50,671 bases of DNA, taken from NCBI GenBank assembly GCA_964398685.1, contig CAYNNF010000003.1, forward strand, positions 11,184 to 61,854. The letters are read 5' to 3'. Under the pieces are notes generated by a model. It saw only the letters and a program-made list of their open reading frames with translations, did no database searches and was not told the origin of the DNA. Made by a program: the position numbers and the translations under genes. The DNA is from an uncultured Candidatus Saccharibacteria bacterium (GTDB lineage: Bacteria; Patescibacteriota; Minisyncoccia; JBAYJV01). Positions 14,996 through 45,532 of the stretch are shown one piece after another (the first letter of the stretch is position 1; the number at the start of each line of letters is the position of its first letter).

Positions 14996-17900
14996 TTATC
15001 TTCCGTCTTCCTCTCTCTTTAAAATCTTTTTCCCTAAAAGTTCAATTGAAAAACCAAGACCTCTGAGCTCATTAAGTAAAACATTAAATGAAGCAGGAAT
15101 GTTAGAATTTATAATTTCTTGACCTCTAATAATTGCTTCGTAAGCCGCTGCGCGGCCTAAAACATCGTCCGATTTAATCGTTAACATTTCCTGAAGAGTA
15201 TAAGCCGCTCCATACCCTTCTAATGCCCAAACTTCCATTTCTCCAAAGCGCTGACCGCCAAACTGCGATTTTCCTCCAAGTGGCTGTTGAGTGATTAGAG
15301 AATAAGGACCAATAGAACGCATATGGATTTTTTCACTGACTAAGTGATTCAATTTCATCATATAAATGTATCCAACTGTTACTGGTTGATCAAACTTTTT
15401 GCCTGTTCTTCCATCGTAAAGATCAAATTTGCCTGTTTCCGGATAATTGGCTTTTTTTAATTCATCTCTTATTTCTGATTCTTTTACTCCCGAGAGAGAC
15501 GGACTTAATGCGCGGCATCCTAAAGATTTAGCAATCATGCCTAAGTGAGTTTCAAGAATTTGACCAATATTCATACGCGACGCTACTCCCAGCGGATTAA
15601 GGACAATATCAACAGGCGTACCATCTTTTAAGTGAGGCATATCTTCTTCTGATAACACTTTAGAAATAACGCCTTTATTTCCATGACGTCCTGACAATTT
15701 ATCCCCAACTTCTATCTTCTTAAATAATGCTACTTCAACTTGAACGCTCTTAATAACGCCCGAAGAAAGTTTATCTCCTTTATCTTGAGAAAAAACGCGA
15801 ACACCAATAACACGCCCTTTTTTACCATGAGGCAAAGTCAAGGAACTATCCTTGATATCACGAGCTTTTTCTCCAAAAATTGACCTAAGTAATCTTTCTT
15901 CAGAAGTTAAATCTGTTTCTCCTTTGGGGGAAATTTTTCCAACAAGAATATCTCCTTCCTTAACTTGCGCCCCTATTCTTACTATTCCTTCTTCGTTAAG
16001 GTCTTTTAATCTTTCTTCTCCTACATTGGGAATGTCGGGCGTGGTCACTTCGGGGCCCAAGCGAGTATCCCTTACATCAATCATAAAATCTTCAATATGA
16101 ATTGAGCTGAAGCGATCATCTCTGACCACTTTTTCTGAAATAATAATAGCGTCTTCAAAATTAAATCCTTCCCAAGAGATAAAAGCAACTAAAAGATTCT
16201 GGCCTAATGCAAGGACATCGCCATCAATTGCTGGTCCATCTGCCAAAACTTCGCCTTTCTTCACCCTATTTCCTTTCTTCACTAAAGGCCGCTGATGAAT
16301 ACAGGTATATTGATTAGATCTCCTAAAATTAGCAAGAGAATATTCTTTAATTTTATTAGCTTTTGTTTCTTTAACAATTATTTTTTGAGCATCAGCATGC
16401 ATTACTATACCGGCATTTTCGGCCGTAACAATCATGCCTGAATCAATGGCTGTCCTTTTCTCCATTCCAGTTCCCACGAAAGGAGCTTCTGGTATTACAC
16501 AAGATACCGCCTGGCGTTGCATATTTGAACCCATGAGCGCGCGATTGGCATCATCATGTTCTAAGAAGGGAATTAATGATGTCGCTACCGATATTGATTG
16601 ATTTGGCGCAACATCTACAAAATCCACTTTTTCGCTTTCTATAAGGCCTGGTTCAGTTTTAATACGAGCTTCCACTTTTTTGTTTTTAAAAAAGTTTTTA
16701 TCATCAAGGGGCTCTCCAGCAGGAGCAATAACATAATTTTCTTCTTCATCAGCAGTTAAATAAACTACTTCATCAGTAACCTTGCCACCCTTAACTTGCC
16801 AATAAGGAGTAATTAAAAACCCGTATTTGTTCAAGGAAGCGTATGTAGAAATATGGTTAACAAGCCCAATATTAGGTCCTTCAGGCGTTTGAATGGGACA
16901 TAGTCTTCCATAATGGCTTGGATGAACATCGCGTACTTCAAAACCAGCTCTTTCTTTGGTTAATCCGCCAGGACCCATAGAAGAAACCCGACGCTTATGT
17001 TCAAGCTCTGCAAGAGGATTGACCTGATCCATAAACTGAGAAAGCCGAGAAGATATAAAAAATTCCCGCACAACTGCCGCAAGAGGTCTGATGTTAATCA
17101 GTTGAGCGGGAGCAAGGGTATAAATATCTAAAGTGCTCATTCTGTCTTTAATAATTCTCGTCATGCGCGCAAAGCCGACTTGAACGCGATTAAGTAAAAG
17201 TTCTCCTACACACTTAATTCGCCTATTGCTTAAATGATCAATATCATCAGGCCTTGATTGAGGGTTTTGATTAAGCTTAATTATTTCTTTAACAATTAAA
17301 ACAATGTCTTTAATAGAAAGAATTCGTTCAGAAAAACCAATTTTTTGTTTTTTCTTTGAGTTTTGTTGAGGACTGTTTAATCCAAGACGTTGTTTAATTT
17401 TCCATCGCCCTACTTCTGATAAATCATATCGCTCAAAGCTAAACATTGCCTTGAGCAACGATCTAGCATTATCCGGCGTTGCTAATTCACCGGGTCTAAT
17501 TCTGCGATAAATATCAATAAGTCCTTCAGGTTGATTATTGGTAAGATCTTTTGCCAGTGAAGCGTCTATATAATCAAACTCATCGGTTTTAAATGAATCT
17601 TTAAAAATTTCTTTAATATTATCATTAGTGTCAATAAGGGGTTTTTCTTCTTCGCGAATTCCTGAAAATGCCCTGAGAAATGCTGTAACGGGCATTTTAC
17701 GCTTACGATCAACTTTGACATAAATAGTGTTATGGTTATCCGTTTCAAATTCCAGCCAAGCGCCTCGATTGGGAATAATTTTGGCGCCAAAATAATGACG
17801 GCCATTTTCATATCGAGAATTAAAAAACACGCCCGGCGAGCGCGCAAGCTGCGATACAATAACTCTTTCTACCCCATTTAAAATAAAAGTTCCGCGATTT

Positions 17901-18238
17901 GTCATCAACGGAAAATCTCCCATAAAAATATCTTGCTCTTTAGTCTCTGCTGTTTTCTTGTTTTCGAGATTTAAACGAACTTTCAACGAGGCTTCGTATG
18001 AAGCATTATGCTCTCTGGCGCTAATTTCGGTATGCTTAGGTTCATCTAAATAATAGTCAATAAAAGACAACTCCAGTTCTTTGCCTGAATAATCAACGAT
18101 GGGAGAAATTTCTTGAAACAGACTCTTGAGCCCTTCTTCAAAAAACCATTTATAGGAATTGAGCTGAATTTCAATCAAATTGGGAAGAGGCAAGTTTTTT
18201 TTAGGAAAACCCGAAAATTTTTTCTCTTCCATACTCAA
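14996..18238 (-). CDS. rpoB: DNA-directed RNA polymerase subunit beta
   Basis: SGRHGNKGVISKV, GGQRFGEMEVWALE and other RpoB blocks. 1080 aa. Confidence 0.98.
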   Translation of the reverse strand: MSMEEKKFSGFPKKNLPLPNLIEIQLNSYKWFFEEGLKSLFQEISPIVDYSGKELELSFIDYYLDEPKHTEISAREHNASYEASLKVRLNLENKKTAETKEQDIFMGDFPLMTNRGTFILNGVERVIVSQLARSPGVFFNSRYENGRHYFGAKIIPNRGAWLEFETDNHNTIYVKVDRKRKMPVTAFLRAFSGIREEEKPLIDTNDNIKEIFKDSFKTDEFDYIDASLAKDLTNNQPEGLIDIYRRIRPGELATPDNARSLLKAMFSFERYDLSEVGRWKIKQRLGLNSPQQNSKKKQKIGFSERILSIKDIVLIVKEIIKLNQNPQSRPDDIDHLSNRRIKCVGELLLNRVQVGFARMTRIIKDRMSTLDIYTLAPAQLINIRPLAAVVREFFISSRLSQFMDQVNPLAELEHKRRVSSMGPGGLTKERAGFEVRDVHPSHYGRLCPIQTPEGPNIGLVNHISTYASLNKYGFLITPYWQVKGGKVTDEVVYLTADEEENYVIAPAGEPLDDKNFFKNKKVEARIKTEPGLIESEKVDFVDVAPNQSISVATSLIPFLEHDDANRALMGSNMQRQAVSCVIPEAPFVGTGMEKRTAIDSGMIVTAENAGIVMHADAQKIIVKETKANKIKEYSLANFRRSNQYTCIHQRPLVKKGNRVKKGEVLADGPAIDGDVLALGQNLLVAFISWEGFNFEDAIIISEKVVRDDRFSSIHIEDFMIDVRDTRLGPEVTTPDIPNVGEERLKDLNEEGIVRIGAQVKEGDILVGKISPKGETDLTSEERLLRSIFGEKARDIKDSSLTLPHGKKGRVIGVRVFSQDKGDKLSSGVIKSVQVEVALFKKIEVGDKLSGRHGNKGVISKVLSEEDMPHLKDGTPVDIVLNPLGVASRMNIGQILETHLGMIAKSLGCRALSPSLSGVKESEIRDELKKANYPETGKFDLYDGRTGKKFDQPVTVGYIYMMKLNHLVSEKIHMRSIGPYSLITQQPLGGKSQFGGQRFGEMEVWALEGYGAAYTLQEMLTIKSDDVLGRAAAYEAIIRGQEIINSNIPASFNVLLNELRGLGFSIELLGKKILKREEDGR

Positions 18239-18572: not shown

Positions 18573-21254
18573 CTAATATTTCGGACTAAACACTTTTATT
18601 AACTGTTTAAAATTTGTTGGTTTGTATTTATCCCATTCTTCCTGCTTCACATAGAGCATTTTGTATGCGATCTTTTTTTGTCTCTCGCTTGCGTCTTCGC
18701 ACCATTGTCCTAACCTCTTTATTTTCTCAATATCGTCTAAATCTTCTCGCCCCTTCGTTTCTACGATATAAATTGTTTTGTTGTCCGTTTTTACAAAAAA
18801 ATCTGGATAATAATTAGAAATCGTTCCGCTTGCATTTTTATAATCAATCTTAAAATGAATCCCGGTATAATTTTTGGCAAAGGAAAGCACATCGTCTGCG
18901 CCTTCCAAGAAATCAGCAAATTCAAGTTCAAAATCACTATCGCCAACAATTTTATTGAATACGCTTTTTTTTGGCAACAAATATTTTTTATCACTAATAA
19001 CAAATGGCCTTGCGTTACTTACTTTGATATAATTTTTTATTTCAGTGTTGCCAACATCTCGCACGGTCAGATTATTTATTTCTTTTTTAAATGTTTCTAC
19101 AATCGTTTTTATTGCCTCCAGCTCAGATAAATTTTGTAAAATATTTGAATCTGTAAGGTCGACTTGTCGCTCAAACAGATAATCGGAAATAAATTCTTTC
19201 ACTTTTCCAAAAAGTATATTGTAACAACCAAATAAACGAAGTTCTCTCATTATTCTTTGTACAAACCAACCAATAGCGCTCTGGTGGTTTGGTTCAATTT
19301 TTGTTTCTAAAATTGTCCGGTGATGTTCTTTATCCTCCAAAACTTCTCTAAAAACAATTTCTTTCTTTTCTTCCTCTGAAAATTGTTTTACTGAAATCTT
19401 GTTATGCTTAAATCCAGCAACATTCAATAAATCAAGATTTTTATATTCTCTTTGGATTCTTGGAGTTAAGATCGGTAATTCAATATCCAAATTTTCAATA
19501 TCTTTTTTCACATTCTGATTATCAATTTCGATGACCGTCGGGGTGATTGGTGGGCTGGAACGATCCATTCTTCGTTTTTCCAGTTCAACGCCTTCCGCCT
19601 TGATTGATTCTACAAATTCCATAAAAGCGGGCGTGCCAATAACGCTCACATATTCCTCAACATCTTGGCCAAAAAACATTCGGCGAAGACCGCGACCCAG
19701 TGTTTGCTCTGGCAATATTTTTGAATCTGACCCATAAGGGCGCAAACCAACGATAGTCGTTACATTTTTGACATCCCATCCTTCTTTAAGCATTAAAACG
19801 GAAACTATCACCTTGTAAGGGCTTTCTATGCTGTCTATCTCATTAGCTTTCTTTCTCAAATCTTGTAGTTCTTTTTCTTTTTTGCCGGTAACTGTTTCCG
19901 AAATCTCACCGCTTTTGTTTGTATGAATAGTTAAAACCGCGCCTTTAAATTGTGGATAACTTTTCTCCAAAAATTCCGCCACATCATCGCAATTTTTTGT
20001 GTCATCGGTCATTATAAAAAGAATTGATTTTTTACCAGTCGGTTCAAGTTCTTTGTATATTTTTTTCCATTCTTCAACTCCTAGTCTGATATAGTCCTCG
20101 TATTTTTCGGAAAATATTGAGCTCTGTTTTTCTTGCAGTTTCGCCCGGCTGGCTTGATCTGGTAAAACAGGATTTTTTACGACTCCCTGATGTATAGCTT
20201 CAACCAAAGGATAGTCAGAAATAGTTTGCACGAAAATTTCACCGCGATTATTTTTCGGCGTAGCAGTAAAATCAATTTGCAGAGCTAATTTTTTGCCTTT
20301 TTGTAATAATTTATTGTGTATATCTTCAATAGATTTAAACCACGCCATTTTTGGATCATGTATATGGTGCGCTTCGTCATTTATAATCATCAATTCATCA
20401 ATATCGCGTACTATTTCTCCCAGATCAACTTTTGAATCATTGGTTTTACCAACAACCTTGTTCCCAAGAAAATAGTCCGAAGTATTTTCGTCTTCAAAAC
20501 TTGCTTCATTTATATTTCCTTCATAAACTCTATGAATATTGGTCAAAAAGATATTTCCCGATTTTGAAATTGTGCCAACCTCATCTTGCAAATGCAATTT
20601 GATTTGAAAATCGTCTTGCCAATTCTGTCCGCCGTATCCATTGTTAGGCAAAATTGGATCTTCATAAAATATTTTTAAGCCTTCAAAATCCGTTTTGATT
20701 CTATCCAAAACAATGATATTTGGGGTGATGAGCAAAAAATTTTTGGATAATTCTGAATTTTTCTCATAAAATTTATGAAAATATGACCAAGCCAAAAGTA
20801 AGCTCATTACTTTTGTTTTTCCACTTCCGGTTGCCATTTTTATCACAAAACGAAGCCAATCTTCGTCAAACATATTCGGGCTCACCCTACCCAATTTATC
20901 AAACTTAATTAAATCATATTTACTTTCAACTTTCTCAACATCATAAAGCCAAATAATAGTTTCCACCGCTTCTCTTTGAGCATAGTAATATTGAAAAGCA
21001 GTGCTTTCGCTGTCTTTGGTATAAATTGTATGAAGTTCCTTGAACCACCAATTCAATAATGCTTTTGAGGTTTCGCTTGCGCCATCATAATTATTTTTCC
21101 GCCACTCGGCTACTTTTTCGCGAAGTTCCGGCACAAAGGGAGGCAGAAGTTTTTCGTAACCCTCTTTACGCAAATCCTCATCGGCCGGAAACCACCTAAT
21201 CGCCGGATCAAGTATTTGATATTTATCTTTTGGAAAATTTTTATGTAATGCCAT
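18573..21254 (-). CDS. res: Type III restriction enzyme Res subunit (SF2 helicase + C-terminal nuclease)
   Basis: Helicase motif I ATGSGKTKV and motif II NDEAHH. C-terminal PD-(D/E)xK-like YYPDFFV...IYIVETKG. Confidence 0.88.
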   Translation of the reverse strand: MALHKNFPKDKYQILDPAIRWFPADEDLRKEGYEKLLPPFVPELREKVAEWRKNNYDGASETSKALLNWWFKELHTIYTKDSESTAFQYYYAQREAVETIIWLYDVEKVESKYDLIKFDKLGRVSPNMFDEDWLRFVIKMATGSGKTKVMSLLLAWSYFHKFYEKNSELSKNFLLITPNIIVLDRIKTDFEGLKIFYEDPILPNNGYGGQNWQDDFQIKLHLQDEVGTISKSGNIFLTNIHRVYEGNINEASFEDENTSDYFLGNKVVGKTNDSKVDLGEIVRDIDELMIINDEAHHIHDPKMAWFKSIEDIHNKLLQKGKKLALQIDFTATPKNNRGEIFVQTISDYPLVEAIHQGVVKNPVLPDQASRAKLQEKQSSIFSEKYEDYIRLGVEEWKKIYKELEPTGKKSILFIMTDDTKNCDDVAEFLEKSYPQFKGAVLTIHTNKSGEISETVTGKKEKELQDLRKKANEIDSIESPYKVIVSVLMLKEGWDVKNVTTIVGLRPYGSDSKILPEQTLGRGLRRMFFGQDVEEYVSVIGTPAFMEFVESIKAEGVELEKRRMDRSSPPITPTVIEIDNQNVKKDIENLDIELPILTPRIQREYKNLDLLNVAGFKHNKISVKQFSEEEKKEIVFREVLEDKEHHRTILETKIEPNHQSAIGWFVQRIMRELRLFGCYNILFGKVKEFISDYLFERQVDLTDSNILQNLSELEAIKTIVETFKKEINNLTVRDVGNTEIKNYIKVSNARPFVISDKKYLLPKKSVFNKIVGDSDFELEFADFLEGADDVLSFAKNYTGIHFKIDYKNASGTISNYYPDFFVKTDNKTIYIVETKGREDLDDIEKIKRLGQWCEDASERQKKIAYKMLYVKQEEWDKYKPTNFKQLIKVFSPKY

Positions 21255-21278
21255 AAAATTTAAGTCTGTGGATAACTA

Positions 21279-21306
21279 TTGACTTTTAATAATCACTTGC
21301 TATAAT
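21279..21306 (+). promoter_or_regulatory. Near-consensus sigma70 promoter pointing antisense into the NYN gene
   Basis: Plus strand TTGACT (21279-21284), a 16-nt spacer, then TATAAT (21301-21306). All neighbouring genes are on the minus strand. Confidence 0.5.
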
Positions 21307-21312
21307 GTAAAT

Positions 21313-21368
21313 GATCGTAAGATCACTAATTCTAGAGCTTAGAGGCCCCTTCATCGGGGTCTCTTTTG
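21313..21368 (+). ncRNA. Candidate short cis-antisense RNA overlapping the NYN 3' end (or 5' end of a leaderless 44-aa ORF, 21311-21445)
   Basis: It starts about 7 nt after the TATAAT. It holds a small hairpin gatc-gtaa-gatc, then a 9-bp stem agaggcccc/ggggtctct (21341-21349 / 21356-21364) followed by TTT. There is no expression evidence. Confidence 0.3.
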
Positions 21369-22108
21369 CATTCCAACTCTCTTTTCCAACATATGAAATC
21401 GCGAATTTTCTGAATATCAAAAATCATCAGTCCTCTTGTAGTTAAGGCCGAAAGCTCTTTGGATACTTTTCTGGCAGTTGCAAATAAAATCACTTTTTTT
21501 CCGGCACTCATTAATTTCTCAACAGGATCAGCGAAATCGCTATCTCCGCTCCATAATATAAAAGTTTCTACGCTATTTCGTTCACAATCAAGAAGCATAT
21601 CAACTCCAATTTCAACATCAAAATTACATTTCATATCCTTGATGAAATATTCTCCTTTTTTATTCATGTCTTTAAATCGCTTATTCAGGTACTCAATGGT
21701 TGCAATTTCATATCTTTTAAGAAGCGCACGCCGAATAAACTGATTGAGCAATACCGTTGAATCGGGTGATATACTAGAAGCATTAATGGAAAAATTTATT
21801 ATTTTTACAGGTTTTGTTCGAAGAATGTACTTGCAGTTCTCTGTTTCTGTTTTTTCTCTTTCTGACCTCTCGTTACCCTCTAAATATCCATTATAAAAAT
21901 TGATTGCCTTTATTTTACTAAAAGAATCTAAGAATTGTTTAAGTCTTTTTAAGTCGATGTGCCACCCAAGTTTTTCGCTCCATGGACGCACATTTGCATA
22001 ATCAATATAGATGCGAGTTTTTGTGCCAAAAATATCATCAAGTTGACTGATGACTTCTCGTTTGTTTTTTGCAATATTTTTAATTCTTTTTGTTTTTGCT
22101 GAAAACAT
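21332..22108 (-). CDS. NYN-domain (LabA/DUF88-like, PIN-like fold) putative ribonuclease
   Basis: RIYIDYANV (N-terminal D..N), CNFDVEIGVDML, ILWSGDSDFADPVEKL...GKKVILFA. These are the characteristic NYN/LabA motifs. Confidence 0.7.
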   Translation of the reverse strand: MFSAKTKRIKNIAKNKREVISQLDDIFGTKTRIYIDYANVRPWSEKLGWHIDLKRLKQFLDSFSKIKAINFYNGYLEGNERSEREKTETENCKYILRTKPVKIINFSINASSISPDSTVLLNQFIRRALLKRYEIATIEYLNKRFKDMNKKGEYFIKDMKCNFDVEIGVDMLLDCERNSVETFILWSGDSDFADPVEKLMSAGKKVILFATARKVSKELSALTTRGLMIFDIQKIRDFICWKRELECKRDPDEGASKL

Positions 22109-22112
22109 AAAA

Positions 22113-22325
22113 TTACCTAATTTTTTGATATTGATACCTATACTTTATATAATCATTCAAAAATTGGCCATTTGAAGACGCACTTATTAAATTTTGATAT
22201 AAATATTTTGGCACATTAAAATACTGATAAATTTCAGCCGAACTAAACTCTACTTCTAAAGTAGCCGACTGAGGGTCATAGCCAATTGAGCGAATATTTG
22301 ACGAATTTACTGGTTTTCTGTTCAT
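22113..22325 (-). CDS. KTSC-domain protein
   Basis: SSNIRSIGYDPQSATLEVEFSSAEIYQYFNVPKYLYQNLISASSNGQFLNDYIK matches the KTSC domain pattern over its full 70 aa. The stop lies 4 nt before the NYN start. Confidence 0.75.
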   Translation of the reverse strand: MNRKPVNSSNIRSIGYDPQSATLEVEFSSAEIYQYFNVPKYLYQNLISASSNGQFLNDYIKYRYQYQKIR

Positions 22326-22423
22326 ATTTATGTATTAATTTCAATAATTTTCATTGGTTGGAAATTATTTGATTGATAGGTCAAGGATTTAAAATTTATC
22401 TTTTAGAAAATTTTTGTGTAATC

Positions 22424-22825
22424 CTATATCTTATCTTTAAATTTCAACCACAATCTTTCAAAATATTTTTTATCCATAAACTCTATTGTTTCGTCAGCTT
22501 CTTTTATTAAACGACTAAAGTGTGAATTTTTTTCTAATTGCGGCCTCCACCATTCTTTAAGATCCCTTAAAATTCTTTTTGAAACTGGATAATATTCTGG
22601 AAATCTTCTTAAGTCAAATATAACAGCGACTTGCTCATCAAGTCCCGTTTTCTCGTCACGATTTGAAATTTTTCTTATTATTTTTTCATGAAATCTCTCA
22701 AAATTAACTTGATCTTGTTCCTTCTTTTTCGCATGCAAATATTGAAACAGTGGAACAATAATCCCAAAAAATGAAACTGCTATCGCTGCTATTTCCTTAT
22801 AGTTTTTTATAAAAAAGTTTTTCAT
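22424..22825 (-). CDS. Hypothetical protein, N-terminal TM anchor + charged helical domain
   Basis: TM helix IAAIAVSFFGIIVPLF. The ATG overlaps the mod stop (ATGA at 22822-22825), suggesting translational coupling. Confidence 0.55.
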   Translation of the reverse strand: MKNFFIKNYKEIAAIAVSFFGIIVPLFQYLHAKKKEQDQVNFERFHEKIIRKISNRDEKTGLDEQVAVIFDLRRFPEYYPVSKRILRDLKEWWRPQLEKNSHFSRLIKEADETIEFMDKKYFERLWLKFKDKI

Positions 22826-24903
22826 ATATTTATCTCAATTACTTTTGTCGTATCATTTCCAAAAATATCAATGACCTTGATTGCGATTTTCATTTTTCCT
22901 CTTGGCACAACCACGACCTTGAAAGCTGAAATCAACTCAAGCACTCTGTCTTTCTTTGTTCTAAACGACTGCCATTCATTCTCAAAGATGTAGCTTCCGG
23001 TCCATTCTTCTTTCTCTTCGCCAGTTTTTTCATCAATTACGCGGACAATTTCTTTTTTGCTTTCAAAATCAAAATCAACTGACCAATAATCAATCCAGTC
23101 CGTCCATTTTTTTGTCAAAACTTCTTTTTCAATAATACCTGTTTGCTTGTCTTTGAAAATTTTAATCACTTGCCCATTTTCAATAATAATTTTACTTCCG
23201 CCTGATTTCAGTTTTTCTTCTACCTCGCCGGTATTGTCTTGGTTATAAAAAACGGAAAAGTCGGTCAATTCAATCGCTACTTCTTTGGCATTGCCTCTTC
23301 CGCGAATTATTGGCTTGACTTCAACATAGGCGACATCATAAAATTTCACCTGCCCCTTTTCCACCGCTTTTTTATCAAACACTTCGCGCGGAATAACTTT
23401 GAACTGCACATCAATTCCCATTTTTTTTACCTGTTCAAAATCTAACCCCATTTCATAATCAAATCCTAAAACATCCGCTTTGGTGATTTTCTTTTCTTTA
23501 CACTCGCTCATAACCCTTTCTAAGAAATTATTGGTAACGGGAGTGTCAATTGATCCAACAGCGACCAACCTATCTCTTTTCTTACCGACAAAAGTATTAA
23601 AAGAATCAACTGGCTCGGCTTTGTAGGCCGAAAGGATAAGTTTGATAAATTCTTTTTCTTTGTTTTCTCGCTGGATTCTTTTTTCTTCTTCACGCAAATT
23701 TTCATTTACATTCAAAAACTTTTCTCGTTCGTATTTGCCAATGTTCAAAATCTCAAATGCCCGAAAATCCTTTCCAGCCTTTTTCAGCTCTCTTTGCACG
23801 CCAATCATTCGTTTGCGGGTAGTATGAATAGAAAACCGTCCTAAATCGGCGCCAATCCATTTTCTGCCTAATTTTTCTGCCACTGCCAAAGTCGTGCCAG
23901 AGCCGCAGAAAAAGTCGGCAACCAAGTCGCCTTCATTGGAAGATATTTTAATAATTCTTTCTAAAAGTTGCTCCGATTTCTGTGTTGGATAATCAAGTTT
24001 TTCATAATCAGTTGGACTCGTAATTTTTTTAATATCAGGCCACCAGTCGTTAATTGGTGTTCCAACTTCTCGCAATTTTGCATCTTCTCCCTTTACAGCA
24101 GTTCTGCCACGCTCAACCGTTCCTTCCGAATACGGACGATATTGCGGATTATAAATCCATTTATCTGATTTTGTGTACCAAAAGATTGTATCGTATTTTT
24201 TGGGCATTTCGTTTTGTGGGATACCCCCACCGCTATAAAGCCACGCAATCGTGTTCCTTAAGTTATTTTTTCCAAAAACCTCATCTAAGACTAATCTCAT
24301 ATAACTATTCACACGCCAATCACAATGCACATAAATACTGCCGTCATCTGCCAAAAGCCCGTGCATCAATTTCAATCTTTCATAAATCATGGCGATAAAA
24401 CTGTCCGCGCCTTTGCCCCAAGTGTCGCGGTAGGCAATTTCTTCAATCACTGACGGCTTTTTAGTAAAACTTTCTTCGCCAATTTCAATATTCATAGAAA
24501 AATCCGCGCCGACATCAAAAGGCGGATCAATGTAAATCAATTTCAGTCCGCCTTCGGCTTCAATTTGTTTTCGCAAAGGACCATTTTTAAGCGATGATAA
24601 AATTAGCTTATTATCCCCCCAAATAAGTTTATTTGACCAACCTTGTATTTGACGACCAGACATATCAAATAATTCTCTTTGTCTTTCTATTTTTTCCTCG
24701 CTTCTCGGCTCATCAATATGTTCAATCGCCTGAAAAGGCAAAACTGTATTCTCTACCTCGTCGGTTTTCCCATTCCATAGAAGCTCAACCTCTTTGTCGC
24801 TATCAAAAAGTAAAAAACGATATTTTTCCGGCAACGGCTTGCCCGATTCCAAATACTTTATAACATCCCTTTTTTCATTATCGGTTAAATTAATCTTATT
24901 CAT
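22822..24903 (-). CDS. mod: Type III R-M DNA methyltransferase Mod (beta-class amino-MTase)
   Basis: Motif IV IYIDPPFDVG lies upstream of AdoMet motif I DFFCGSGTT (beta order). A long variable C-terminal region could serve as a target-recognition domain. Confidence 0.88.
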   Translation of the reverse strand: MNKINLTDNEKRDVIKYLESGKPLPEKYRFLLFDSDKEVELLWNGKTDEVENTVLPFQAIEHIDEPRSEEKIERQRELFDMSGRQIQGWSNKLIWGDNKLILSSLKNGPLRKQIEAEGGLKLIYIDPPFDVGADFSMNIEIGEESFTKKPSVIEEIAYRDTWGKGADSFIAMIYERLKLMHGLLADDGSIYVHCDWRVNSYMRLVLDEVFGKNNLRNTIAWLYSGGGIPQNEMPKKYDTIFWYTKSDKWIYNPQYRPYSEGTVERGRTAVKGEDAKLREVGTPINDWWPDIKKITSPTDYEKLDYPTQKSEQLLERIIKISSNEGDLVADFFCGSGTTLAVAEKLGRKWIGADLGRFSIHTTRKRMIGVQRELKKAGKDFRAFEILNIGKYEREKFLNVNENLREEEKRIQRENKEKEFIKLILSAYKAEPVDSFNTFVGKKRDRLVAVGSIDTPVTNNFLERVMSECKEKKITKADVLGFDYEMGLDFEQVKKMGIDVQFKVIPREVFDKKAVEKGQVKFYDVAYVEVKPIIRGRGNAKEVAIELTDFSVFYNQDNTGEVEEKLKSGGSKIIIENGQVIKIFKDKQTGIIEKEVLTKKWTDWIDYWSVDFDFESKKEIVRVIDEKTGEEKEEWTGSYIFENEWQSFRTKKDRVLELISAFKVVVVPRGKMKIAIKVIDIFGNDTTKVIEINI

Positions 24904-25020
24904 GGTTTTTGAATAAATAATTCAATTAACACGATAATGATAACTAATTTAAACAATTTTGTAAACAAATTATCTGAAGCTGTTTTGTCTTATATTTTTT
25001 TAAATTTCTTCCTCTATTTT

Positions 25021-26490
25021 TTAGCCAGGCGGCATTTCGTTGGGCTCGGGCGGAAATTCAATTTCTTCAATCTCGCCAGGACGCTTGCTCACTGATTCGT
25101 AGGTAGCAGATTTCTCTTTAAAATAAACATTAATATGACCCGTTGGCCCATTTCTGTTTTTGGCAATAACAAGTTGTCCCTCAGGTTGAAGACCTATTTC
25201 AGGCAATGCTTTTTCTTCGCGATAAATAAACATAACAACATCCGCGTCCTGTTCTATTGATCCTGATTCGCGAAGATCTGAAAGTTTGGGAATAGAATAG
25301 GATCGATGTTCAACCGCGCGAGAAAGCTGAGATAAGGCAAGTACTGGTATATTAAGTTCTCGCGCTAATGCTTTGAGCGATCGAGAGATTTTTGAAATTT
25401 CTTGAACACGATTTTCTGTCTTGGCAGACGGCTCCATTAATTGAAGATAGTCTATAATAATAAGCCCTAAATCAGATTGCGCCTGCAACCTCCTTGCCAT
25501 TCCTCTCATTTGAAGAACATTACTAGTCATGCCGTCGTCAATATATATTGGAGCGTGAGAAAGATCGTCTAAAACATGTTGAATAACATCAAAATCATGA
25601 TCGGCCAAATTACCCGTTCTTAACTTCCACAAATCAATGTTTCCTTGTTGAGATACCAATCTATCAACCAATTGGTCAGTTGACATTTCAAGGCTAAAAA
25701 TACCAACCGCCTTTTTTTCTTTGAGCGCTATATTTCTAGCAATATCTAAGGCAAGAGATGTTTTTCCAATGCGCGGTCGCGATGCTAAAATTATTAAATC
25801 GGTTTTCTGAAAGCCAGAAAGATATCTATTGTCCAAATCAGGATAGCCGGTAGCGACTCCCCTTAATCTTTTGCCTCCCTTTTGATGAAGCAAATCAAAG
25901 CGTGAAAAAGCTTCGGCCAAAGGTTCTTTTAGAGAGAGAAATTCGTGAGTAAGAGATTTTTGGGCAATAGAAAAAACCCGTTTTTCCGCCGCATCCAAAA
26001 CTTCATCAATATTCTTATCTTCGTTATATCCAAGCTGAGCCAAATAATAGGAAGCGTCAATAATATCGCGCAAAACTTTCTTTTTAGAAACAATTTTAGC
26101 ATAGCTATAAACATGGCTTGAAGTTGGCACAGCATTGACCAAGTTGGCTAAATATGATCTGCCGCCTATTTCTTCAAGCTGTTTTTTTTCTTCAAGCTTA
26201 GCTGAAACACTCAAAAGGTCTATTGCTTCTTGTTCTCTGAAAATTTCAAGCATAGCTGAATAGATTAATTGATGCCGCCTGCGGTAAAAGCTCTCTGGAC
26301 GCAAGAAATCCGAAACTCTAATAATCGCGTTCTTATCAATCATAGCCGATCCTAAAACAGATTGTTCTGCTTCAATGCTTTGAGGAGGCAAACGGTCTTG
26401 GGATGTTTGAATTGACAGAGAATCAATCTGAATATCAGAATTTTGTTCTTTGGGTTTTTCCCTTTTAACTTTTTTGTCTTTGTTAACCAT
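25021..26490 (-). CDS. dnaB: Replicative DNA helicase DnaB
   Basis: PPQSIEAEQSVLG N-domain, Walker A SRPRIGKTSLAL, IIIDYLQLM, ALSQLSRAVE. Confidence 0.95.
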   Translation of the reverse strand: MVNKDKKVKREKPKEQNSDIQIDSLSIQTSQDRLPPQSIEAEQSVLGSAMIDKNAIIRVSDFLRPESFYRRRHQLIYSAMLEIFREQEAIDLLSVSAKLEEKKQLEEIGGRSYLANLVNAVPTSSHVYSYAKIVSKKKVLRDIIDASYYLAQLGYNEDKNIDEVLDAAEKRVFSIAQKSLTHEFLSLKEPLAEAFSRFDLLHQKGGKRLRGVATGYPDLDNRYLSGFQKTDLIILASRPRIGKTSLALDIARNIALKEKKAVGIFSLEMSTDQLVDRLVSQQGNIDLWKLRTGNLADHDFDVIQHVLDDLSHAPIYIDDGMTSNVLQMRGMARRLQAQSDLGLIIIDYLQLMEPSAKTENRVQEISKISRSLKALARELNIPVLALSQLSRAVEHRSYSIPKLSDLRESGSIEQDADVVMFIYREEKALPEIGLQPEGQLVIAKNRNGPTGHINVYFKEKSATYESVSKRPGEIEEIEFPPEPNEMPPG

Positions 26491-26644
26491 ATAATAATAT
26501 TAGTTATTATTAAATATTTGTCTGGTTTTAGTTTAACAATAAAAAATTACTTTTAAAAATATATCTGTTTTATAGTTCAATCTTGTTAAATTGCCTATTT
26601 TGTGGATAAGACCTTTGTAGCTCCTTGAATTAAATGGGGATAAT

Positions 26645-28696: not shown

Positions 28697-29140
28697 TTAC
28701 CTTCTAATTTCCGACTTTTCCAAAAACTTCAAAATATAATCACAATATTGATGATAATCTTTCAAGCAATCCTTTATAGAAGAATAAATTTGGCTATAAT
28801 CAATCTTATCGTATTCATGAACTAAAATATTCCTTGTGCCAACGCTTTTAGAAATACTCTTTCCAAAATCCTCTGAATAAACCTTCAGTTCTATCAATCT
28901 CAAAAATGTTTCTTTATAGTCCTTAGGCGATTCTATTTCCTTCCTAAACAACTCGACAACTAAATGCTGATTAATATCTATGGCTCTAATTATAATCTTT
29001 TCTAAAATTCTTTCTAATGCATTCTGCTTCAAAAAATCGCTCACAATTTCTTGAAAAGAATATTGAGATAATTTTTTCAAATCAATCAATTCTTTTTGAA
29101 TAAGCTCTATTTTTCTTTTTATAAATTTTTTATTGACCAT
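28697..29140 (-). CDS. hepT: HepT-like HEPN (DUF86) toxin
   Basis: GTRNILVHEYDKIDY contains the R-x4-H-x-Y HEPN motif. It overlaps the upstream MNT gene by 11 nt. Confidence 0.8.
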   Translation of the reverse strand: MVNKKFIKRKIELIQKELIDLKKLSQYSFQEIVSDFLKQNALERILEKIIIRAIDINQHLVVELFRKEIESPKDYKETFLRLIELKVYSEDFGKSISKSVGTRNILVHEYDKIDYSQIYSSIKDCLKDYHQYCDYILKFLEKSEIRR

Positions 29141-29546
29141 AGATGCTCTGCTCCAATAACTTATGTCTCTTTTTTACTAAAATATCTTCTAAGTCAAAAA
29201 GTCGCTGACTGTCAATATGTGTCCTAAAGGCAAGCGCCTTAAACTCTAGATAATCCAACTCATTGCCATAAAGTAATCTACTATTTATTGCAATTTCATA
29301 TCGCAATAAAGGATTAACATTTTCTAAATTAACCATATCTATTCTGTCAGAATGAAAAATATCCATTAAATCACAATTTAGATCTATTTGTTCCTTACCA
29401 TTTAATTCTCTTTTGGTCAAATAAGCAATGTCAAAATCACTCTCTTGGTGAAGATTTTTTTTATTGACTTGAGAACCAAAAAGTAAAAGTAATTTCAAAC
29501 TATACTTTTTAGCAATCTTGTTCAGTTGTTTTTTTTCTTTTTCCAT
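29130..29546 (-). CDS. mntA: MNT-type minimal nucleotidyltransferase antitoxin
   Basis: LLLFGSQV...ESDFDIAYL (GS...DxD NTase motif). Paired with the HEPN gene. Confidence 0.8.
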   Translation of the reverse strand: MEKEKKQLNKIAKKYSLKLLLLFGSQVNKKNLHQESDFDIAYLTKRELNGKEQIDLNCDLMDIFHSDRIDMVNLENVNPLLRYEIAINSRLLYGNELDYLEFKALAFRTHIDSQRLFDLEDILVKKRHKLLEQSIYGQ

Positions 29547-38910: not shown

Positions 38911-39830
38911 TATTGTTCTCTTACATTATCTAAATAATTAATAGCGCTTAAAGCTGCTCTGGCGCCTTCTCCAACTGCAATTGAAATTTGGCGATATTGA
39001 TTATCAACAACATCTCCGGCTGCAAAAAGACTAGGAATTTTCGTCTGACAAGATTTATCCACAATAATTTCTTTTTTTTCATTAAGAATATCCAGATTTG
39101 CGCTAATAAATTTTGTATTCGGCTTTACTCCAATATAAATAAACGCGCCACTGATTTTTATTTCCTTTTTTGCGCCTGTATTTAAATCTTGATAATGCAA
39201 ACCTTCTAAAAAATTTGCGCCGAAAAAATCTGTCGTTTTCGCCTGATAAATAATTTTCACATTCTTGATTTGTTTTGCTTTCTCAATCATAACTCTTTCT
39301 CCTTGCAACTCATTTTCTATCACTACAAGATAAATGTAAGAAACAATTTTTGAAAGCGCGACTACTGCTTTGAGGGCTGAATTTCCCCCACCGATGATAG
39401 CAACATCTTTGCCGGCAAATATCGGCCCGTCGCAAGTTTCACAATAACTAACGCCTTTGTTGAAGAATTCTTTTTCTCCCGGAATTTTGAGCGTCTCAGG
39501 ATCAGCGCCGCTTGCAATAATAACAGTTTTGGCTTCAAAGTTCTGTTCGCCTGCCTTTATTAAAAAATGCGTATTTTTTTGCTCTATGCTCTCAATTTCT
39601 TTGAAAATAACATTCGGAGTATATTTTTCTAAATGTTCTTGAAATGTTTTTATTAAATCCATCCCCGCAATAGACGGAAATCCAAGATAATTTTCCACAA
39701 GACCTGCCTTGATTGCGTTTCCCCCCATATCTTTAGTTATCACTAAAAAATTAAGGCCAGCTCTCGCGGCATATATAGCAGCTGACATTCCACTTGCTGA
39801 CGCGCCAATAATGATTAGATCAAAAATCAT
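38910..39830 (-). CDS. trxB: Thioredoxin-disulfide reductase
   Basis: GASASG FAD motif, CETCDG redox-active disulfide, GGGNSA NADPH motif, GDV. Confidence 0.9.
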   Translation of the reverse strand: MIFDLIIIGASASGMSAAIYAARAGLNFLVITKDMGGNAIKAGLVENYLGFPSIAGMDLIKTFQEHLEKYTPNVIFKEIESIEQKNTHFLIKAGEQNFEAKTVIIASGADPETLKIPGEKEFFNKGVSYCETCDGPIFAGKDVAIIGGGNSALKAVVALSKIVSYIYLVVIENELQGERVMIEKAKQIKNVKIIYQAKTTDFFGANFLEGLHYQDLNTGAKKEIKISGAFIYIGVKPNTKFISANLDILNEKKEIIVDKSCQTKIPSLFAAGDVVDNQYRQISIAVGEGARAALSAINYLDNVREQ

Positions 39831-45338: not shown

Positions 45339-45532
45339 GTTTTAATTCCTTTCTAAAAAATAATATAAATACTGTCGACCTTATTAATTTCTAATCCTAT
45401 TCTAATGCGTCTTTCTAAAAAAGTAAAGGTAAGATATCTAAAAAATTGTGGATAAACTTCTTAATAATTAGAATAACATGTTTGCCATTTATTTTTCCGT
45501 TGTCAGGTAAAAATTTTAACATTTACTATTTT

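Follow-up and report, generated by a model that had tools for sequence, protein, structure and literature searches.

The mod and res genes of a type III restriction-modification (R-M) system are expected to be adjacent or overlapping. In a 50,671-nt stretch of DNA from an ultra-small, uncultured Candidatus Saccharibacteria bacterium (assembly GCA_964398685.1, contig CAYNNF010000003.1, positions 11,184 to 61,854 of the forward strand; hereafter the window), the two genes lie 1,567 bp apart with three small co-oriented genes between them, which raises the question of what these genes are and why they sit inside a restriction operon. An earlier analysis made from the letters of the window only (the sequence-only reading) had taken the three genes, encoding a 133-aa membrane protein, a KTSC-domain protein and a LabA-like NYN protein, as one trio forming a candidate composite defence module. 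Comparison with related loci indicates instead that the KTSC and NYN genes, together with an antisense RNA predicted at the 3′ end of NYN, are an autonomous cassette whose same three parts recur in type III, type I and type IIG operons and outside them, and that the membrane protein gene is a separate passenger.

The KTSC-NYN pair occurs inside and outside R-M operons

Homologues of the NYN protein numbered 1,893. The best 120 of them, at 76-88% identity, were spread over many classes of Patescibacteria, and some labels of metagenome-assembled genomes such as 'Gammaproteobacteria' are probably binning errors. A scan of species-level genomes returned 35 loci, 27 of which carry the KTSC-NYN pair; like the other locus surveys it was seeded by short peptide patterns, and open reading frames (ORFs) in the surveyed loci were called by a simple script. 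Wherever the contig included both ends of the pair and the identity of the NYN protein was 65% or more, KTSC was found directly upstream of NYN. Seven of the 27 loci carry the pair between Mod and Res of the type III family seen in the window, two with other type III-like genes, five in type I operons directly after hsdS or hsdM, one after a type IIG Eco57I-like gene and one beside a lone C5 methylase. Two further copies lie beside a lone nuclease, seven have housekeeping-looking neighbours (e.g. pyruvate kinase, NusB, RecG) and in two the context was not determined. R-M genes therefore adjoin the pair in 16 of the 27 loci, inside or beside operons of three types, as the proposed tie to R-M had implied; the narrower idea of a dedicated type III component has to be abandoned, since 11 of the 27 have no R-M neighbour.

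The arrangement Mod..KTSC-NYN-Res was found in 13 distinct loci of type III, where at least nine different cargos precede the pair, so that the interruption of mod and res in the window is real and not peculiar to it. With the type I and type IIG contexts added to these 13 loci, the pair is nested and co-oriented within R-M operons in several independent lineages. In a neighbour-joining tree of NYN, embedded and free copies were interleaved, and on account of this mixture of contexts we dropped the idea that the embedded copies form one clade from which free copies later escaped. Degraded copies were also seen, among them a split NYN gene in locus L042.

Several observations on individual copies were made along the way. 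In two type I operons (L018 and L026) the gene order is hsdR-hsdM-[OLD-like ABC ATPase or another NYN]-hsdS-KTSC-NYN, the extra cargo between hsdM and hsdS being an OLD-like ABC ATPase-TOPRIM gene in L018 (2670-4343) and a second NYN protein in L026 (3964-4932). In L079 (4241-4425) a 54-aa KTSC fragment is fused straight to the antisense-RNA element, NYN having been deleted, and is followed by a Bro-N gene and then by res. Stand-alone loci (e.g. L013, L018, L023, L032) carry a TATAAT-like -10 element only ~8-12 nt before the KTSC ATG, which is weak or absent in embedded copies; a -10 so close to the start codon suggests that free cassettes may be transcribed as leaderless or near-leaderless mRNAs.

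A structured antisense RNA is predicted at the 3′ end of NYN

One component of the cassette had escaped the sequence-only reading, namely a predicted structured cis-antisense RNA that overlaps the NYN mRNA. Every cassette, embedded or free, shows DNA-level conservation of about 110 nt around the stop codon of NYN, and so do distant NYN genes without KTSC. The antisense RNA was predicted in all 41 of the aligned cassettes, with one copy per locus and always 3′ of NYN. Its promoter in the window (Table 1) is the best promoter-like site between 18400 and 25100, and promoters with at least 9 of 12 consensus matches were found in 34 of the 41 loci, the -10 ending 5 nt ahead of the 5′ hairpin. The predicted RNA overlaps the final ~13 codons of NYN and its stop codon, and its terminator hairpin, a 9-bp stem followed by TTTGCATTCC, is the best terminator-like site of the region. 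The 66-nt stretch folds as two hairpins with a free energy of -23.5 kcal/mol (z -3.9).

Covariation supported these hairpins and assigned them to a strand. Both sides had changed in 12 of 16 base pairs, and 97.6% of the alignment cells were paired on the antisense strand compared with 88.7% on the sense strand. All five measures exceeded those of 500 out of 500 shuffles, and slid controls reached 35-62%. When the main hairpin was read on the sense strand, it contained 28 A.C cells and no G.U, whereas 99% of its cells were paired on the antisense strand; moreover, its central G.U, which exists only on the antisense strand, was kept in 38 of 40 sequences. We therefore rejected a sense-strand mRNA structure or terminator as the explanation of the conserved element. 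The combination of a promoter, a terminator and strand-specific covariation leads us to infer an antisense RNA.

Other candidates for the element were tried. A small plus-strand ORF starting from 21312 was discarded, as its start codon is not conserved and the terminator precedes any stop codon. A transposon end or attC-like site was likewise discarded: nothing is conserved past ~15 nt upstream of KTSC, the cassette contains no recombinase and no copies of the element lie beside other cargo. Searches with Rfam (in E-value mode) and ARAGORN assigned the element to no known RNA family and found no tRNA.

A perfect DnaA box, TTATCCACA, stands next to the antisense promoter (Table 1), and such a box recurs, in either orientation, in many cassettes. 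The window as a whole contains five perfect boxes of this sequence (the others at 19951-19959, 26601-26609, 39055-39063 and 45447-45455), where 0.33 would be expected and none of 100 shuffles reached five. Besides the box of the cassette, one is within res and one just upstream of dnaB.

The KTSC and NYN proteins

The family labels given to Mod, Res, KTSC and NYN were upheld by Pfam and PADLOC profile searches. NYN matched PF01936 with an E-value of 3.2e-17 (63.8 bits against a cut-off of 24.2). In PADLOC it matched the generic NYN model at 1.1e-12 and HEC-09 at 3.3e-8, the latter match being both weaker and partial (NYN residues 135-236 against positions 79-180 of the 203 in the model). The motifs IDYAN, FDVEIGVDM and SGDSDF were present in the translation, and residues D36, D164, E166, D170, D189 and D191 were kept in at least 39 of 40 diverse homologues, down to ~40% identity, which bears out the view that the acidic motifs are intact; the catalytic residues are present. 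An AlphaFold2 model had a mean predicted local distance difference test (pLDDT) score of 70.5, with a confident core and a poorly predicted insert at residues 100-160. Its best fold match in the PDB was the LabA-like NYN protein 2QIP (E 8.9e-6; template modelling score 0.69, target-normalised). NYN is thus predicted, from its motifs and model, to be a metal-dependent RNase, and no LabA-type bacterial NYN protein had been assayed as of a 2017 classification (Matelska et al. 2017, PMC5499597).

The KTSC protein matched the whole of PF13619 (positions 1-58 of 58; 2.4e-23, 82 bits against a cut-off of 25). Its matches in the PDB were 7x8c (2.7e-16), 4rgi (6e-15) and the C-terminal arm of HerA in the SIR2-HerA structure 8wiv. 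PADLOC has no model for it, and no mention of KTSC together with NYN was found in the literature searched.

The cassette is an insertion that arrived after the membrane protein gene

The 133-aa protein has a single N-terminal hydrophobic helix and had no family match in Pfam, PADLOC and NCBIfam scans. An AlphaFold2 model with a pLDDT of 82 showed an all-helical body, for which Foldseek returned nothing significant. The ATG of its gene shares the tetranucleotide ATGA with the mod stop codon, and its translation is accordingly taken to be coupled to that of mod. Only 11 homologues were found among 5.8 billion proteins, and two of their contexts proved informative. In locus L127 the order is Mod-TM-Res, with a homologue of the membrane protein (TM) that is 79% identical, the same overlap with the mod stop, res beginning 7 nt later and no KTSC-NYN. 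In L129 a homologue adjoins an AbiJ gene, away from any R-M system.

Comparison of the window with L127 by blastn showed homology running through mod and the membrane protein gene up to 22426 and starting again with the res ATG (21254). Relative to L127, the window thus has 1,171 bp of inserted DNA, which comprises a res 5′ stub, KTSC, NYN and the antisense-RNA region. These results do not support treating the trio as a unit: the membrane protein gene occurs without the pair in L127 and next to AbiJ in L129, and KTSC-NYN is a separate insertion. On this comparative evidence the 133-aa protein is an older, independently acquired cargo.

The left edge of the insert is an in-frame, decayed duplicate of res codons 1-27, recognised by tblastn, by translation (IGLHKNFLKDKF*ILDLSIK*FPTNEN in the stub versus MALHKNFPKDKYQILDPAIRWFPADED in res) and by an identity test, in which 59 of 81 nt were identical to the res 5′ end and the best of 20,000 random 81-mers reached 38 of 81. 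Intact stubs were found in the same position in other loci, spanning 41 codons in L001/L040 and 52 in L028, with nucleotide identities to their own res of 64% and 85%, respectively. As judged from this duplication, the stub is an insertion or recombination scar; it fits the integration, by a single crossover, of a circle with homology to the res 5′ end, or homology-facilitated illegitimate recombination. In five pairs of occupied and empty loci, in which the same upstream cargo is present with and without KTSC-NYN (L015/L062, L019/L100, L083/L111, L092/L056 and window/L127), the cassette spans the interval from the upstream stop codon to the nucleotide before the res ATG, and the spacing between upstream stop and cassette is 2-5 nt where no stub or spacer intervenes. 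We also searched for a vehicle. Viral contigs (searched with the protein and with the DNA core of the element), INPHARED phages and PLSDB plasmids contained no NYN homologue or element, and thus give no evidence for a phage or plasmid carrier; PHROGs returned matches to families of unknown function only.

The mod-res junction is a cargo slot

A Res-centred metagenome scan recovered at least 80 loci at 65% identity or more, 66 of which are non-redundant and hold both genes. In 25 of these 66, mod abuts res with a gap of 8 nt or less, which indicates that the R-M family is canonical and the gap in the window secondary. In the other 41 (~60%), co-oriented cargo of 0.6-3.6 kb separates the two genes. 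Five of the 66 loci hold an intact KTSC-NYN cassette (a sixth is a duplicate), and the other 36 occupied loci do not. When the seven NYN-seeded species-level loci were added, the resulting census of 73 loci contained 55 cargo sequence clusters, and KTSC-NYN was invariably the final item before res. The larger cargo included Schlafen/AlbA_2 with HATPase_c_4 (five loci), Fic, DUF3800, NYN with a PLD-like domain, Bro-N, a SIR2 and HerA pair, AAA_15/AAA_21 ABC ATPases and GmrSD_N. Taken together, the comparisons show the mod-res junction to be a family-wide slot for co-oriented cargo, which in the window holds two independent passengers; the diversity of the cargo would be explained if it were exchanged by recombination within the conserved flanks, mod and res. 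It had been argued that a simple insertion would be recognised by contiguous mod/res pairs in related genomes, with the inserted genes confined to unrelated contexts. The first half of that expectation is borne out by the 25 contiguous pairs; the second is not, because KTSC-NYN recurs in the slot.

Some occupants of the slot deserve separate mention. In L064 (3251-6155) the homologous type III mod and res genes enclose a complete SIR2 and HerA pair, which is known as an anti-phage system. Two unrelated NYN lineages also use the slot (L054 7075-7986, L093 459-1379; L060, L086, L087), both of them lacking KTSC and the antisense element; in one of them NYN is fused to a PLD-like domain, and the other, of 266-293 aa, abuts res. 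Some 20 small slot proteins have 1-4 predicted membrane helices and fall into many unrelated clusters (L001, L015, L019, L028, L033, L056, L062, L066, L094, L100, L107 and others), so that membrane proteins between mod and res are a repeated theme in this Res family.

The type III genes and their surroundings

An ORF translation check placed all five ORFs on the minus strand where the sequence-only reading had put them, and the ATGA overlap, the 4 nt between the KTSC stop and the NYN start and the quoted motifs were also as claimed. Mod matched Pfam N6_N4_Mtase (PF01555, 1.5e-44) and PADLOC MTase_III (1.7e-118), its DPPF motif IV precedes the FCGSGTT motif I, as in type III Mod proteins, and its sequence matches in the PDB include EcoP15I Mod (4zcf). 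Res matched ResIII (5e-20), RE_endonuc (1.2e-5, residues 762-845) and PADLOC REase_III (1.1e-22), which gives it both a helicase and a nuclease; it also matched partially the NCBIfam BPTD_3080 family and is complete in length compared with 80 homologues. Searches of Res against PDB sequences, as a single query and as a profile, gave zero matches and hence no solved relative detectable by sequence. By these profile and motif comparisons mod and res form a canonical R-M pair of type III. Systems of this type cut DNA in an ATP-dependent manner 25-27 bp away from asymmetric sites in inverse orientation, and their Res acts only when complexed with Mod. A weak promoter-like site upstream of mod (Table 1) is a possible candidate for the operon promoter.

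The proposal that the block is an island inserted between rpoB and dnaB held in part. The flanking genes are as described and the homologous operon was found in unrelated neighbourhoods of other genomes, but the base composition of the block is the same as that of its flanks and offers no contrast, so that the island idea relies only on those other neighbourhoods.

Two further neighbours were mapped from L008. At ~28697-29546 on the minus strand (L008 563-1412), ~2 kb past dnaB, lies a pair of Polbeta nucleotidyltransferase and HepT-like genes, an MNT/HEPN-type toxin-antitoxin and thus a second RNase-type module near the R-M block. Beyond ~30100 on the same strand (mapped from the start of L008), a gene for a 566-aa TrwB/TraG-like coupling protein (DUF87, TrwB_AAD_bind, TraG-D_C) adjoins that of ribosomal protein L21 and hints at conjugation or type IV secretion genes nearby.

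Table 1. Position of the genes and predicted elements at the type III locus, in window coordinates.
Feature	Position	Strand	Description
res	18573-21254	-	893 aa; superfamily 2 helicase with C-terminal PD-(D/E)xK-type endonuclease
NYN gene	21332-22108	-	258 aa; LabA-like NYN (PIN-like), predicted metal-dependent RNase
KTSC gene	22113-22325	-	70 aa
133-aa ORF	22424-22825	-	N-terminal membrane helix
mod	22822-24903	-	693 aa; type III-like N6/N4 DNA methyltransferase
Insert relative to the empty locus L127	21255-22425	-	res 5′ stub, KTSC, NYN, antisense-RNA region
Decayed duplicate of res codons 1-27	22347-22427	-	stub; found by tblastn, translations and identity test
Predicted antisense promoter	21279-21306	+	TTGACT-16-TGcTATAAT; 11/12 matches and extended -10; faces NYN 3′ end
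Predicted antisense RNA	21312-21374	+	~60 nt; 5′ hairpin 21312-21325, linker, terminator hairpin 21341-21364, then UUUUGCAUUCC
DnaA box	21267-21275	-	TTATCCACA, perfect; 3 nt upstream of antisense -35
Promoter-like site 5′ of mod	24937-24965	-	TTTACA-17-TATCAT; consensus scan only, weak
rpoB (flank)	14996-18238		
dnaB (flank)	25021-26490		

What the cassette may do

We favour the interpretation that KTSC-NYN and its RNA are an autonomous toxin-antitoxin-like RNase module embedded in the cargo slot of a type III R-M system, to which we assign a probability of roughly 0.55. In such a module NYN would be an RNase effector or toxin, and KTSC, co-translated with it, would be the partner that restrains or directs it, as antitoxin, adaptor or sensor. 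The strongly promoted antisense RNA would pair with the 3′ end of the NYN mRNA and hold NYN output low. If transcription were disturbed, for instance by phage takeover, or if the locus were lost, the short antisense RNA would decay and NYN would be freed; freed NYN would cleave RNA and arrest the cell, and the outcome would be abortive infection and/or an addiction that stabilises the host R-M operon. The comparisons themselves show how the locus is built, that the cassette was inserted, that it recurs and is conserved, and which structure and strand the RNA has; RNase activity, toxicity, the roles of KTSC and of the RNA and any defence phenotype are what we infer from the arguments above. Among the other genes found in the slot, most are of a known defence type, and this 'guilt by embedding' points to defence. 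The second-line role suggested by the sequence-only reading is thus favoured by these slot-mates and by the R-M association, but it cannot be kept in its original form, in which the trio was one unit and KTSC-NYN belonged to type III.

Several points count against this interpretation. The antisense RNA is a computational prediction, the frequencies of contexts describe a sample and not a census, and neither a recombinase nor element ends that could account for movement of the cassette were found. A nuclease of 258 aa is unlike the classical type I toxins, which are small peptides. The conservation of NYN is higher than is usual among toxin or defence genes, and the seven loci with housekeeping-looking neighbours would also suit a role in cellular RNA processing. 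Finally, HEC-09, the only embedded NYN protein to have been tested, failed to protect E. coli (Payne et al. 2024, bioRxiv 10.1101/2024.01.29.577857).

The conservation and the neighbours just mentioned are the starting point of the reading in which KTSC-NYN serves the cell in RNA processing, as an enzyme with a cis-antisense regulator, and R-M loci merely tolerate insertions. That the best 120 homologues share 76-88% identity would agree with it, and LabA-like NYN proteins have been linked to tRNA and rRNA processing neighbourhoods (Matelska et al. 2017, PMC5499597). We nevertheless regard it as unlikely, because the genomic context is variable and mixed across the NYN tree, R-M genes of several types adjoin the pair in most species-level loci (16/27), the insertion has left a scar, the slot-mates are defence-type genes and copies are found degraded (the split NYN of L042, the KTSC fragment and RNA element of L079). 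An equally low standing is given to the idea that the cassette regulates the R-M operon, with the antisense promoter and RNA in the 77-nt gap between NYN and res throttling or delaying res relative to mod and NYN processing the polycistronic mRNA, which would make establishment in a new host safer. The cassette does always lie immediately 5′ of res with its end abutting the res ATG, no promoter-like site of the region is stronger than the antisense promoter, which faces the operon, and EcoP15I is reported in a review to delay translation of res after entering a new cell. However, 25 of 66 homologous systems manage with mod abutting res, and the same cassette and RNA follow hsdS in type I operons or stand alone beside unrelated genes; throttling of res is possible where the R-M system is type III, but it leaves the free copies unaccounted for.

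Two other explanations carry still less weight. KTSC-NYN and the membrane protein could be junk insertions, unlinked to each other or to R-M, and the facts that the trio is not a unit and that slot content is highly variable would fit such a coincidence. It is made very improbable by the intactness of every ORF, by a start-codon-precise placement that recurs behind at least nine upstream cargos and by the strong conservation of the cassette, including compensatory changes in the RNA. We give scarcely more than a token chance, the smallest of all, to a guard in the manner of PrrC, in which NYN would be kept latent by contact with the Mod/Res complex and would fire when a phage anti-restriction protein disables it. 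The position of a putative RNase gene within an R-M operon, like that of prrC within ecoprrI, speaks for such a guard, as does KTSC, a domain named after the C-terminal domain of lysyl-tRNA synthetase, which hints at RNA or tRNA binding. Against it, Pfam, NCBIfam and PADLOC scans detected no ABC-ATPase or anticodon-nuclease domain in the cassette, and the occurrence of the same conserved NYN with three unrelated R-M types, and with none, argues against a specific protein lock with the Res of the window.

Returning to the toxin-antitoxin-like module, a bolder version of it can be formulated, in which KTSC-NYN and its antisense RNA are a new three-component toxin-antitoxin/abortive-infection system, possibly tuned by DnaA through the adjacent box, the commonest single R-M passenger in Patescibacteria, and the mod-res junction is a dedicated docking site, at which recombination in the R-M genes on either side swaps the defence cargo. 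We put this forward tentatively, as a possibility that we find doubtful as a whole.

Significance

What is new here is the cargo slot of a type III family, the cassette of KTSC, NYN and antisense RNA and its prevalence in Patescibacteria. In these bacteria (also known as the candidate phyla radiation, CPR) genomes are tiny, recognised defence systems are few and experimental genetics is almost absent. The cassette is a compact (~1.1 kb) candidate module, widespread among them, with three defined parts that can be tested by synthesis in E. coli. Its position extends 'defence embedding' to type III R-M systems, and the Res-centred loci with cargo between their mod and res genes, ~60% of the total, offer a place to look for new defence genes, small membrane proteins included. 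The antisense RNA is also a case in which covariation and strand asymmetry by themselves make the argument; if true, it would be a rare example of a nuclease effector that is controlled by an RNA without belonging to the classical type I or type III toxin-antitoxin families. All in all, the cassette is a good candidate for a new defence or addiction module repeatedly lodged in restriction operons.

Comparison with known systems

Short antisense RNAs that converge on and overlap the 3′ end of their target are known from the type I toxin-antitoxin systems par/Fst (RNAI-RNAII), TxpA/RatA and BsrG/SR4, and nuclease-type toxins from SymE/SymR and RalR/RalA. The cassette resembles them in its short, strongly promoted convergent antisense RNA at the 3′ end of the effector, with a 5′ hairpin and a terminator hairpin, the overlap with the effector mRNA being computed here. 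It differs in that the effector is not a small hydrophobic membrane peptide but a 258-aa soluble NYN protein with a co-translated KTSC partner, to which only the exceptions SymE and RalR are similar.

The classic embedded RNase is PrrC, an ABC-ATPase-anticodon nuclease found almost only in type I R-M loci (type IC ecoprrI) and held latent through the R-M complex. Like prrC, the NYN gene lies inside an R-M operon and would encode an RNase, and PrrC is the paradigm of a second-line abortive response tied to restriction. KTSC-NYN is unrelated to it in sequence, occurs with several R-M types or alone, with no near-exclusive tie to one of them, and has its own predicted antisense RNA. PIN-like toxins have been described in hsdM/hsdS/hsdR operons, in transcriptional coupling to the type I subunits and sometimes without a recognisable protein antitoxin; the same study did not link LabA-like NYN proteins (COG1432) to R-M and listed their function as unknown (Matelska et al. 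2017, PMC5499597). These toxins share with the cassette that PIN-superfamily nucleases lie within R-M operons, but they are mostly of the VapC type and in type I contexts.

Embedding of defence genes is known for Hma, BREX, DISARM and type I R-M systems, type III not being covered (Payne et al. 2024, bioRxiv 10.1101/2024.01.29.577857). The slot described here is similar in that co-oriented genes are nested between defence core genes and that the cargo is diverse and largely defence-type, and Hma even contains an embedded NYN-domain RNase candidate, HEC-09; the latter differs from the cassette in being a single protein with an N-terminal helix-turn-helix-like region, no KTSC partner and no described RNA. 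A KTSC-like fold is found, in turn, as the C-terminal arm of HerA in the SIR2-HerA system (PDB 8wiv, PMC11472057). There it is fused to the ATPase and stabilises the hexamer, whereas the KTSC of the window is a free 70-aa protein paired with a nuclease; what the two share is the fold, used as a small accessory module in SIR2-HerA, a proven anti-phage system that is itself cargo of the slot in L064.

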